Source: a virus
Taxonomy: Duplodnaviria > Caudoviricetes
DNA length: 64,000 nucleotides
Virus record (IMG/VR): IMGVR_UViG_3300045282_000294
Span: 457 to 64,456 of that record
Direction: 5' to 3' (one strand)
A program made the translations under genes and the position numbers. Under the pieces are notes generated by a model. The model searched no databases and was not told the origin of the DNA. It saw nothing but the letters and a program-made list of their open reading frames with translations. Positions 27,498 through 30,094 of this stretch are shown piece by piece (positions within the stretch are counted from its first letter, which is position 1; each line of letters starts with the position of its first letter).

Positions 27498-30094
27498 TTA
27501 TCCTGCGATGACCTGGGCTTGCGCCAAAGCCGTCCCGTCAAGGATTTGATATCCGTATACTTGAAGTCCACGTAGGATTTGCCCGAACGTAAGTTCAGAT
27601 CTCAGCGTCTCGATTTTGCTGATCTGGCTTGCAAACGTTAGGGCATGTGCGTGTCCCGCATAGATCGGGGCCTCGCCCGCCGCGAAGTTGGTCGCGTCGG
27701 TTGTGACGCTCGGCAACAGGTTCGAGATATAGATTGTGAACCGGTCAACCATTCCGAGCCTTCCATTGCGCAGCATCGACACCGGATCACCCGACAGATA
27801 CGCCTGCCGCAGCTCGGACTGCTTGATCATGCGTCCGGCCCAGGCCGGCATCACAACCCAACGCCCGACTTCCGGGATGTTGTACTCGTCCAGGCACTGG
27901 CCAAGCCGCAGCAGGATGTCGATGATCTCGACCTGACCCGCCACCGGCGTAGCCGCCTGCCGGCCGACGATCGTCACCGGCGTGCCCTTGATGCCAAGGT
28001 TCAAGTTGGCGGAAATCACTCCGGCCGTTGCACCCTTGTTGCCAGCGGCAGCGCCGCCAACAATGCCGCCGAGCACGTCACGGTCGACGGTAACCTTCAA
28101 CTGCTGTGCGGCGTCCCTTAATCTTCGCAACGAGGCGCGACCCTCGTTACCGCCTTTCGGGCTGCTGCATATTCCTATGCAGAGGAGACTATATCATCAC
28201 CCCTTTCGGGGGCCGGGCGCTTCGGGCCGCTTGGCCCTACGAGCTTTCGCTCTAGTCGTTGCACCTTCCGCTTTCGCGGCTTGGCTCAGGATTGGCCGGT
28301 CTGGCGTTCCCCTGAATTAACCCGGTTTTCGATGCTGATTACTCAGCAAAGGGACTCTGATTAATCCGACCACATCGACAGCAGATTGAGATCAGACTGA
28401 ACCTCCATGACGTCGTCGAGGATCAGGCTGAAGTACTTGCCCGATCCTATGTAGAGCTCAACCGAACCACCGGTCGGGCGATCGAGACCGAGCAAACCAT
28501 CGGCCTTGTAGTCGCGGATCGTGCAAACGAGCAGCGCTCGTTCCGATCATCACTTCAGCGGGCGGGCCGCTGCCGGGTCGGTTGATCTGTGCGGGTGCGC
28601 TCTTGCGCTTCCCTCTGGTTCCTTGCAGTCCCAGTTTTCATAGACCCGGTTTAACGACGACCTCAGTTAATCGTCGGCTTGGTCCGGATTTTCACCCGGT
28701 CCCCCATATTGGCGATTTCGCCTTCATAATCAGTCGCTTAGAGGCACAGCCTCTGCCCACTGTCGCTTACGCTCTCTGCTGCCAGGCCCCATGAATGACG
28801 GCACGTCACGCACCGTCTTCAGAAGCTCAGCAACGTGAGCGCCCGGACCACTCAGTCTGTGCGCCTGGGACCGGAGCTGTTCCAACCCCGCCTTGATACG
28901 CTCACCATCGCGGAAATGACCCATCTTCGCACAACCAAGCAAGAAATAGATCTGATCCGTTTTCAGAACCATATGCTTGGCTAGGCCAGTCTTGCCGCTC
29001 TCGAACATGGACCGGACTTTTGCCGCATCCAGCCAGAGCGTCCACGTGACGATTGGCGTACCGTGAGGAGTTAGGTGCTCGCGAATGGAGCCTCCATAGG
29101 CCTTTTTGAGCAGGTCAACTCCGACCCGCTCGATGGCTTCATCACAAACCATAAGGCTGAGATGCCCACCTAGCCCATTGGGGATATTGACGTTGAAGGT
29201 CCCATTCCCTTCGATGTAACCAGCAGCCCACTTTCGTGTTGGGTGCTTCGGCATTGGCGAGGCGCCGCGAGCGGCATCAAACCTCTGCTTCCCTTCCTCG
29301 ACGTCCATGAACTTGCCGTTCATATCGATGGCACAGTCAGCAAGTGCTCGCTTGAGGACTAAGAACTTGCGCAGCCGCATCAGTACGCTCACGGCCTTAG
29401 AACCAGCTACAACCCAGTGATGGGTGCCGCTGTAGGCAATCGTACCAATCGTCCCCCACACATCAGCGAGTGAAGGAGGCGTCAGGCTGCTGGCGATGAG
29501 ACGCATGAAGCTATGGTCTGGGGTTTTCTGAGAGAACGAAACCACAGCTTGCGCGCGACGCGGCCCGGTCTGATCCTTGTGGTCGTCATACCACTTCAGA
29601 CAGATGCAGCCGTCGCTGTCCAAAAGTCCTGCGAGATACTTGTCGCTGAGCCGTCCCTTGGCTCTGGTTCCTCTCGGTTCCAGTTTTCCAGGTCCAGTAT
29701 TACTCGAACTACCCTTTAATTCGAGATTGCCGAGAGCACTGTGCTCGCGTAGCTCTCCGGCCGGAGCCGGACCGACTATCGCTTCAACGGCATTGCCCGT
29801 TGCCAGGTCACTTAGTCTGTGCGGGTGCATTTCTGGTGCTTCCCTCGGGTTCCCGGAGGTCCCCGTTTTTCAGACCCGGTTTAAAGAAGTCCTATCGAAC
29901 TTCTCGACGAGTTTGGCCGACCAGATTTCCATTTGAAGCAGCGGTTAGCCAAAGCCCGTTCACATCCCCAAAATCTAGTAACGGATAGGGACGAACCCTG
30001 TCGATTGCAGGAGGTTGCCCGTAGAACCGACGGGCGTCAGTGCTGGGGTTGATCCTGACGTTGCGCCAGGAAAACCCGCACTCGGGATAGCCAT
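27498..30094 (-). CDS. major capsid protein (P22-coat-like), 338 aa after splicing; exons 30094-29987, 29929-29898, 29752-29719, 28734-28670, 28523-28364, 28115-27498
   Basis: Joined exons total 1017 nt with no internal stop: MAIPSAG..TGFVP|EIWSAKLVEKF|YASTVLSAISN|TDYEGEIANMGDRVKIRTKPTI|TIRDY..MWSD|DAAQQLK..RGLQVYG; lies directly after the scaffold-like gene. Confidence 0.9.
28116..28363 (-). ncRNA. group I intron 5 of the capsid gene (248 nt, conventional phage IA-like)
   Basis: 5' exon ends in U and the intron ends in G; P1 GGAU/GUCC; core elements AAUUCAGGGGAA, AAUCCUGAGC, CAACGACUA, GAUGAUAUAGUCU; several GAAA-capped hairpins. Confidence 0.9.
28524..28669 (-). ncRNA. minimal group I intron 4 (146 nt)
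   Basis: P1 CGACGAU/GUCGUCG; P3 CCGGGUC/GACCCGG; P4 CUGG/CCAG; P7 CAGAUCA/UGAUCG; P8; P9; terminal G. Confidence 0.85.
28730..29830 (-). CDS. double-motif LAGLIDADG homing endonuclease / possible maturase
   Basis: YLAGLLDSDGCI and WAAGYIEGNGTF motifs; true start uncertain. Confidence 0.85.
   Translation of the reverse strand: MHPHRLSDLATGNAVEAIVGPAPAGELREHSALGNLELKGSSSNTGPGKLEPRGTRAKGRLSDKYLAGLLDSDGCICLKWYDDHKDQTGPRRAQAVVSFSQKTPDHSFMRLIASSLTPPSLADVWGTIGTIAYSGTHHWVVAGSKAVSVLMRLRKFLVLKRALADCAIDMNGKFMDVEEGKQRFDAARGASPMPKHPTRKWAAGYIEGNGTFNVNIPNGLGGHLSLMVCDEAIERVGVDLLKKAYGGSIREHLTPHGTPIVTWTLWLDAAKVRSMFESGKTGLAKHMVLKTDQIYFLLGCAKMGHFRDGERIKAGLEQLRSQAHRLSGPGAHVAELLKTVRDVPSFMGPGSRERKRQWAEAVPLSD
28735..29718 (-). 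mobile_element. group I intron 3 (984 nt) with a homing endonuclease ORF inserted in P6
   Basis: P1 CUCGAAU/GUUCGAG; P3 CUGGACC/GGUCCGG; P6 GCC-AA-GGGA..UCCC-A-GGC; P7 CAGACUG/CAGUGG; terminal G. Confidence 0.85.
29753..29897 (-). ncRNA. minimal group I intron 2 (145 nt)
   Basis: P1 AGAAGUU/GACUUCU; P3 CCGGGUC/GACCUGG; P4 CGGG/CCCG; P7 CAGACUA/UAGUCG; P8; P9; terminal G. Confidence 0.85.
29930..29986 (-). ncRNA. 57-nt core-less group I-like mini-intron 1
   Basis: U at the 5' exon end and terminal G; P1 GUCCCU/GGGGAU; P10 CUAGAUUUU pairs with exon 2 GAAAUCUGG; three in-frame stops; no room for P3-P8. Confidence 0.7.

Follow-up and report, generated by a model that had tools for sequence, protein, structure and literature searches.

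A core-less 57-nt intron remnant in a phage major capsid gene and its possible excision by a neighboring group I core

How could a phage major capsid protein (MCP) gene be expressed when its reading frame is interrupted by an insertion that carries stop codons and the guide helices of a group I intron, and that holds no catalytic core? This question was raised by the MCP gene of the IMG/VR record IMGVR_UViG_3300045282_000294 (Duplodnaviria; Caudoviricetes), a 64,456-bp virus genome with direct terminal repeats and an estimated completeness of 100%. We analyzed a stretch of 64,000 nucleotides (nt; positions 457 to 64,456 of the record), hereafter the window, which covers almost all of the record. 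The gene contains five insertions, numbered I1 to I5 in the direction of transcription, of which the first, I1, is only 57 nt long. As an overall explanation, we slightly favor the reading that I1 is a core-less remnant of a group I intron that is excised by the core of the next intron, I2, to which it would be tethered by a helix (the anchor) formed between its 3′ part and the short exon that separates the two.

A stop-containing insertion with group I guide helices

Excision of the 57 nt (29986..29930) joins ..GGGTTCGTCCCT to GAAATCTGG.. and restores the motif GFVP-EIWS, which was present in 150 of 150 regular-expression matches among related loci. When I1 is left in, the region is read as IRY*ILGM*TGFG*PLLQM (asterisks, stops). 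The three in-frame stops had been described in an earlier note on this DNA, which was made from the letters alone and proposed I1 as a mini-intron spliced by the core of a neighbor, and translation of the insertion confirmed them. No open frame runs through I1, which does not agree with an intein or another in-frame insertion. After removal of all five introns, a frame of 1017 nt was obtained, comprising 338 codons without stops, and its product of 338 amino acids (aa) aligned end to end with the capsid protein of an intronless Rhizobium phage (328 aa) at 212 identical positions of 338. Among named phages, the nearest relatives are Rhizobium phages such as RHph_TM27A, in which the MCP gene is uninterrupted. 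Each of the five insertions is preceded by U, and the last base of each is G.

I1 carries the features that a group I intron presents on the substrate side, namely a P1 helix with U.G, a P10 helix and a terminal omega-G. The last 7 nt of exon 1 (29993..29987, CGUCCCU) form the 5′ strand of P1 and pair with GGGGAUG of I1 over seven contiguous base pairs (bp), with U.G at the splice site. The unconstrained minimum free energy (MFE) fold contains this P1 in an extended form, with 6 bp, a GU bulge and a further 4 bp of GUUC/GAAC. Directly 5′ of the P1 strand lies the guide ACUAGAUUUU, which forms a P10 of 10 bp with the first 10 nt of exon 2. The guides were thus largely as the earlier note had them, with U.G in P1, the extension of P1 and the terminal G all borne out; the P10, given there as 9 bp, was found to be one pair longer. 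The corresponding helix is about 5-6 bp long in two full-length relatives at the same site (L007 and L042; L numbers denote related loci). None of 20000 dinucleotide shuffles of the 57 nt yielded a comparable layout, with a P1 of at least 7 bp and an adjacent P10 of at least 10 bp. The 33 nt that follow P1 are mostly complementary to exon 2, and I1 folded alone showed no unusual stability. We also observed that the last three bases of I1 (29930..29932, minus strand) read ATG in frame with exon 2, where the long relatives end in ..ACG.

The catalytic side of a group I intron is missing from I1. The Rfam group I model RF00028 gave no match on I1 even at E<=10, and neither did R1, a covariance model of the compact introns in the neighborhood, in agreement with the earlier note; the P3-P9 core with the guanosine site in P7 was not found. 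With neither this core nor an open reading frame (ORF), I1 is, as judged from its sequence, non-self-splicing in the usual sense.

Origin and recurrence of core-less mini-introns

Relatives were examined at the best 80 of 435 and the best 80 of 578 viral loci, and records at or near the genome of the window may have been excluded from the contig searches. Among the best 80 of 435, the MCP gene was uninterrupted at 67 loci, while six loci (L004-L008 and L042) contained a LAGLIDADG intron of 686-713 nt between the P and E codons of GFIP-EIWS, which is exactly the I1 site. Additional long introns were found at this site in L149 and in two metagenome fragments. In L136 (2617-2919), the intron at the I1 site has a length of 303 nt, with most of the endonuclease ORF deleted and the core kept; it links the ~700-nt introns to the minis as an intermediate form. 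The full-length versions that the earlier note had envisaged in related phages were thus recovered at 686-713 nt, together with the ORF-less form of 303 nt.

Nucleotides 3-28 of I1 aligned with the 5′ ends of the full-length introns at the same site with 24-25 identities in 26 alignment columns. For its 3′ half no clear counterpart was found, the similarity to the P5 region or to the 3′ end of the full-length introns being weak and gapped. By this homology, I1 is almost certainly a remnant of the group I intron of this site. We read I1 as the end point of intron decay at this one site, which passed from 700 through 300 to 57 nt. A pattern made from the 5′ end of I1 matched six full-length contigs and no others among the viral contigs, and three full-length records plus one chance match among the metagenome contigs. 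A pattern specific for the 57-nt form gave zero matches. Contigs of metagenome-assembled genomes (MAGs) contributed nine loci, and the eight with a full-length match were all uninterrupted. The capsid relatives L180-L187 lay on short contigs of MAGs that were assigned to unrelated phyla (Caulobacteraceae, Anaerolineae, Nanopelagicales, Pyrinomonadaceae and others); phage contigs were probably binned there by mistake, and no host can be read from these loci.

Further core-less mini-introns were observed in 13 related contigs, which makes 14 records together with the window. They comprise three families with four forms of 31-40 nt. Minis of 37 nt (L123) and 40 nt (L139) occupy the same site as I1, whereas a 31-nt mini in three contigs and a 33-nt mini in eight contigs from eight samples lie 10 nt downstream of it, after ..TGGT. 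All minis begin after U and end with G, and their excision gives exactly EIWSAKLVEKF. Layouts of P1 and P10 as good as those of the four other forms were reached by 5, 0, 1 and 2 of 20000 shuffles. A length of 31 nt is not divisible by 3, and the mini of this size has no start codon by which the frame could be rescued; the 33-nt mini likewise lacks an in-frame start codon. Folded alone, the 31-nt mini showed no unusual stability. The 33-nt mini (L103:11427-11459) alone forms a near-palindromic hairpin with an MFE of -9.6 kcal/mol, matched in stability by 2 of 200 shuffles and in competition with P1 and P10. The tail of this mini is similar to the P3′ and J8/7 stretch of the I2-type intron next to it, a likeness that may be a trace of its origin.

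The guide helices of these minis have changed on both strands. A compensatory change was found in P1, where the exon strand AAAUCUGGU goes with the guide GCCAGAUU in one family and the exon strand AAAUUUGGU goes with GCCAAAUUU in another. In P10, the window has GAUUUU paired with GAAAUC, and L123 and L139 have AUCUC paired with GAGAU. The helix covariation in the minis goes along with synonymous changes in the exons. The minis of L123 and L139 differ at one position in their 3′ 33 nt, while the adjacent exon of 72 nt differs at 11 positions, which affect seven codons synonymously and one non-synonymously; these two minis, at least, appear to be conserved. Within the 33-nt family, exon 1 showed five synonymous codon changes and one non-synonymous change, and within the 31-nt family three and none. 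The minis appear, as far as these comparisons go, to be inherited and tolerated, and so maintained rather than dead, which is hard to reconcile with an insertion in the major capsid gene that cannot be removed.

Compact neighboring introns and the anchor helix

I2 begins 32 nt downstream of I1, as the earlier note had stated, and is one of two compact introns of the same type in this gene, the other being I4. An alignment (A1) of five sequences, namely I2, I4 and relatives, was made with a hand-drawn structure and served as the basis of R1. The core of this type (136-150 nt) contains P3, P4, P5, P6/6a, P7 (pseudoknotted with P3), P8 and P9. Over its 34 pairs, 95.8% of the alignment cells were paired and 12 pairs had changed on both sides. 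None of 500 shuffles did as well, and controls in which the structure was slid along the alignment gave 24-41% paired. In addition, I2 carries R- and S-like elements (..ACAGACTAA.. and ..GATAGTC..). The covariation in P3-P9 argues that the I2/I4-type introns are group I introns with a core. RF00028 missed I2 and I4 even at E<=10, and Rfam recognized I5 alone. A scan of the genome with R1 returned I2 (151 bits), I4 and only the weak 5′ and 3′ core halves of I3, and no group I introns were detected elsewhere in the 64-kb genome with Rfam or R1.

Complete-looking group I cores of 136-150 nt without P2 were observed in I2, I4, L081 (2584-2733) and L052 (3660-3795). To our knowledge, these introns are below the size of any natural group I intron; the Azoarcus group I intron has ~205 nt. 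A search of the open-access literature on the smallest group I intron returned nothing relevant.

A core-bearing intron was located 22-72 nt downstream of the mini in 14 of 14 mini-bearing records. Conversely, wherever an I2-type intron occupied the I2 site (eight of eight contigs and the window), a mini was found 22-32 nt upstream; the related compact intron of L052, which is at a different site, has no upstream mini. The candidate helper introns in L091, L123 and L139 are canonical RF00028 introns. In L123 (1882-2956) and L139 (2151-2956), the best RF00028 alignment started in the mini and not at the P1 of the helper. In the L123 alignment, the P1 of the mini was taken as P1, and the exon together with the helper's own P1 was treated as an insertion before P3, which gives the composite the topology of one ordinary group I intron. 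On this model, the anchor hairpin and the helper's own P1 would occupy the place of P2 and P2.1.

In all four mini families, the stretch that follows the P1 strand of the mini is complementary to a part of the exon, and this part stops 0-1 nt short of the 5′ strand of P1 of the next intron that bears a core. In the window, exon 2 provides nt 1-10 for P10, nt 7-25 for the anchor with nt 25-45 of I1, and nt 26-32 for the 5′ strand of the I2 P1. The anchor of the 33-nt family, GAUCAGCU, pairs with nt 7-14 of the micro-exon, where P1 uses nt 16-22. The 31-nt family forms a helix of 10-12 bp with exon nt 51-63, followed by P1 at nt 64-71, and the 9-bp anchor of L123 and L139 ends one base ahead of P1. 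Unconstrained MFE folds of the region from the end of exon 1 through the mini and the exon to the start of the next intron contained three adjacent helices in all four families, namely the P1 of the mini, an anchor hairpin that carries the 3′ splice site close to its tip, and the P1 of the helper, with z-scores of -2.2, -3.1, -3.6 and -4.7. When the junction was fixed, the contiguous pairs in the other forms numbered 8, 10, 9 and 9 bp, equaled by 299, 0, 17 and 5 of 20000 shuffles (counts that are indicative only). The junction-anchored duplex of the window had an energy of -21.3 kcal/mol, which was equaled in 12 of 5000 shuffles. The recurrent pairing of tail and exon, abutting the next P1, offers a structural reason why the core of the neighbor could act on the mini, and, in the modeled arrangement, helper-dependent excision becomes plausible.

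A direct contact between I1 and I2 was also considered. The earlier note had pointed to a complementarity of 8 nt between the 3′ end of I1 (UGCUUCAA) and I2 (UUGAAGCG). It does exist, but at chance level, since 66 of 500 shuffles equaled it and it ranked only fifth when the pre-mRNA was scanned, and it was rejected as a specific contact. The corresponding duplex test of the I1 tail against I4 was equaled by 39 of 500 shuffles.

The features of the gene are collected in Table 1. A capsid coding sequence of 1017 nt is here divided by five introns, leaving micro-exons of 32, 34 and 65 nt, and exon 1 is preceded by GGAG 8 nt ahead of its ATG. Ahead of the LAGLIDADG motif of the I3 endonuclease, the sole in-frame start candidate (ATG, GTG or TTG) is the ATG at 29830, in a loop of I2; the ORF as listed (28730..29830, minus strand) therefore spans the 3′ half of I2 and, in another frame, exon 3. 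Its stop codon overlaps exon 4 by 5 nt, and the 3′ half of the I3 core sits within the endonuclease coding sequence. Outside this gene, the phage encodes a tRNA-Val (anticodon tac) at 3193..3267 on the plus strand, which was detected by ARAGORN and Rfam (67.5 bits).

Table 1. Positions of the MCP gene, its exons and its introns in the window
Feature	Position	Strand	Description	Basis
MCP gene	27498..30094	minus	five introns, six exons	
Exon 1	29987..30094	minus	36 codons, MAIPS..STGFVP	ORF list and alignment to intronless Rhizobium phage MCP P0001
I1	29930..29986	minus	57-nt core-less mini-intron	three in-frame stops, U before the 5′ splice site, 3′ G
P10 guide of I1	29970..29979	minus	nt 8-17, ACTAGATTTT	pairs with exon 2 nt 1-10
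P1 3′ strand (internal guide) of I1	29963..29969	minus	nt 18-24, GGGGATG	directly 3′ of the P10 guide
Anchor of I1	29942..29962	minus	nt 25-45, complementary to exon 2 nt 7-25	MFE folds and anchored duplex
Linker and terminal G of I1	29930..29941	minus	omega-G at 29930	
Exon 2	29898..29929	minus	32-nt micro-exon, EIWSAKLVEKF	
I2	29753..29897	minus	compact 145-nt group I intron, P1 and P3-P9, without P2; proposed helper ribozyme	
Exon 3	29719..29752	minus	34 nt, YASTVLSAISN	
I3	28735..29718	minus	984-nt group I intron with LAGLIDADG endonuclease ORF	Pfam PF00961
Exon 4	28670..28734	minus	65 nt	
I4	28524..28669	minus	compact 146-nt group I intron, same family as I2	
Exon 5	28364..28523	minus		
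I5	28116..28363	minus	canonical 248-nt group I intron	Rfam RF00028, 82.5 bits
Exon 6	27498..28115	minus	stop codon included	

Proposed excision, alternatives and known systems

We propose the following route. A mobile LAGLIDADG group I intron almost certainly lost its endonuclease gene and its whole core, keeping P1 with U.G, a P10 that was strengthened, and the terminal G. In the transcript, the 3′ part of I1 would pair with micro-exon 2 as far as the base of the I2 P1, with the I2 core directly after it. The I2 core would then dock the P1 of I1 in place of its own P1, guanosine would attack the 5′ splice site of I1, and P10 together with the terminal G of I1 would direct the ligation of exon 1 to exon 2. 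Afterward, I2 would remove itself by means of its own P1. The idea of one ribozyme with two sets of splice sites, already put forward in the earlier note, is in this way carried over with I1 as a core-less derivative and with the recurrent tail-exon helix at the next P1, while the specific I1:I2 contact is given up. Taken in parts, I1 is very probably removed at the RNA level and probably by the group I core of another intron; for I2 acting in cis as that helper, our preference is slight. The wider proposition is finely balanced, namely that phage capsid genes hold substrate-only mini group I introns (31-57 nt with a P1/P10 guide, a terminal G and an anchor) and that one core excises two introns in turn.

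Several points weigh against this proposal. The 57-nt form had no match in any other viral or metagenome contig searched, and its support comes by analogy with the four other forms. For those, only the within-family changes (15 synonymous and two non-synonymous codons in total) are clearly later than the minis, and a large share of the synonymous differences between families may be older than the minis. The anchor of the window is interrupted, with 5 contiguous bp at the junction that 2639 of 20000 shuffles equaled. Exon 2 was also not among the top five targets of the I1 tail in a sliding scan of the GC-rich pre-mRNA, whereas in the same scan the anchor site ranked first for the 31-nt family and second for the 33-nt family. 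The anchor pattern was recognized post hoc and not predicted, so that the shuffle counts overstate its significance. In two families, the micro-exons have 22-32 nt, so that any pairing of tail and exon necessarily lies near the P1 of the helper. P1, P10 and anchor, all formed in full, look sterically hard to combine in the 33-nt family, and some of these pairings must therefore alternate. If I2 were spliced first, the tether to its core would be lost. Finally, no natural precedent for a group I core that acts on a separate, substrate-only intron was found in the open-access literature.

Among the alternatives, the one that survives best is a reaction in trans. Any folded group I core (I2-I5, on the same or other transcripts) would remove I1, and the tail-exon helix would be incidental or would merely hold exon 2. 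Four core-bearing introns are available in this gene, and capsid mRNA is abundant late in infection. Furthermore, the helpers in the other families are of two intron types, so that no family-specific contact would be needed, and of the four anchors, that of the window has the least statistical support. In E. coli, a 100-nt intron is removed in trans by engineered Tetrahymena spliceozymes (PMC4509937); in those constructs, however, the guides are in the ribozyme, whereas here they are in the substrate. We regard the trans route as unlikely, with the anchor ending 0-1 nt from the next P1 in four of four families, including two in which this point lies ~50 nt into the exon, an arrangement that would be difficult to account for if position were irrelevant.

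It is also quite unlikely that I1 is a recent, unspliceable deletion, that is, a dead or defective allele or an assembly artefact, from which no functional capsid protein would arise. Such an allele would agree with the absence of the 57-nt form from the other viral and metagenome contigs searched, and metagenome assemblies can capture defective genomes. Nevertheless, the record is complete with terminal repeats, and a full-length ORF results from the remaining exons and splice sites, all of which are intact. I1 has kept P1, P10 and the terminal G, with a P10 longer than in the full-length relatives, and four other core-less forms in 13 contigs are flanked by coding constraint on both sides.

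Removal by proteins, either by an endonuclease and an RNA ligase acting on the hairpins or by a dedicated factor as assumed for lichen rDNA introns, was given a low probability. The two hairpins display both splice sites and could be a protein substrate. However, we know of no such pathway for bacterial mRNA, no match to RtcB or the RNA-ligase family was obtained in the phage, and the features that are conserved (U.G in P1, the adjacent P10 and the terminal G) are those needed by group I chemistry. A partial precedent is found in lichens, where degenerate group I introns that are not self-splicing are removed in vivo, as reported in bioRxiv 10.1101/2021.05.01.442275.

Alternatively, I1 could be retained. 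Exon 1 would then yield a peptide of 39 aa, and the capsid protein would re-initiate at the terminal ATG of I1 as a truncated MEIWS... product. This ATG is in frame with exon 2, and the stop of the exon 1 frame lies ~40 nt upstream, so that coupled re-initiation is conceivable. An AUG is expected there by chance in 1 of 16 cases, however, given the terminal G; it is not preceded by a Shine-Dalgarno-like sequence, and the full-length relatives end in ..ACG and not in ATG. Exon 1 is, moreover, under coding constraint next to the 31- and 33-nt minis, which have no in-frame start. We consider re-initiation highly improbable.

Ribosome hopping over the 57 nt, as in T4 gene 60, is hardly credible: the gap is short, contains stops and has stable hairpins flanking the take-off region, but I1 lacks the matching take-off and landing codons that define programmed bypass, GFVP-EIWS is not restored by any pair of codons, the one pair that does match (AUC..AUC) deletes the Glu found in 150 of 150 motif matches, and the sole downstream UGG is out of frame in the 31-nt family.

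If excision of the minis by a neighboring core is correct, this would be the first natural case known to us in which a group I ribozyme processes a second, core-less intron. The decay of an intron would then not have to end in precise loss or in the death of the gene, as a stub of 31-57 nt could persist near a helper, and the minis would be a stable end state in the decay cycle of homing introns. Such a stub might keep the homing site disrupted and so protect the phage from the endonuclease of full-length relatives. The arrangement would provide a simple model, open to testing, of the way in which self-splicing introns could come to rely on a shared catalyst. In practice, mini stubs break gene calls in phage genomes, and a removable insert of 31 nt, used together with its defined helper, could be turned into a genetic tool.

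In the open-access literature, we found neither a natural group I mini-intron that lacks a core nor helper-dependent group I splicing in phages, and the nearest known systems differ from I1 in several ways. The bypass element of T4 gene 60 is a short, stop-containing gap in an essential phage gene with matched take-off and landing codons; I1 lacks such codons, and what is conserved in it belongs to group I splicing. The LAGLIDADG group I introns of 686-713 nt at the same site share with I1 the site, the 5′ end, the guide GGGGATG, U.G, P10 and the terminal G, but they have a P3-P9 core and an ORF, both absent from I1. The split, trans-spliced group I introns of organelles resemble the proposed route in needing RNA parts that are not contiguous with the splice sites (PMC3873408; see also PMC2731911). 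There, two separately transcribed halves rebuild one core, whereas I1 has no core segments and lies in one transcript, on the same strand as the complete intron that adjoins it 32 nt away. Degenerate group I introns in lichen rDNA also lack sequences for catalysis and are removed in vivo; as reported in bioRxiv 10.1101/2021.05.01.442275, they average ~233 nt, retain most of the fold, reside in nuclear rRNA and depend on host machinery, while the minis have 31-57 nt and no core. Group III introns of Euglena plastids have likewise degenerated, to ~100 nt, with loss of the catalytic domain, and RNAs or proteins acting in trans are believed to be needed for their removal (PMC4424553). These introns are derived from group II, are organellar and follow a different chemistry, with no specific helper or tether known for them; the minis, if the proposal holds, would be their group I counterpart, a natural division between substrate introns and a shared RNA catalyst. 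A likeness in mechanism is seen with the engineered spliceozymes, the only setting known to us so far in which a group I core has been shown to process a second, core-less intron. In PMC4509937, a group I core removes a core-less intron through base-paired recognition of both splice sites, as is proposed here, but the system is artificial and its guides reside in the ribozyme, whereas the guides of I1 reside in the mini-intron and the catalyst would be a neighbor tethered in cis.

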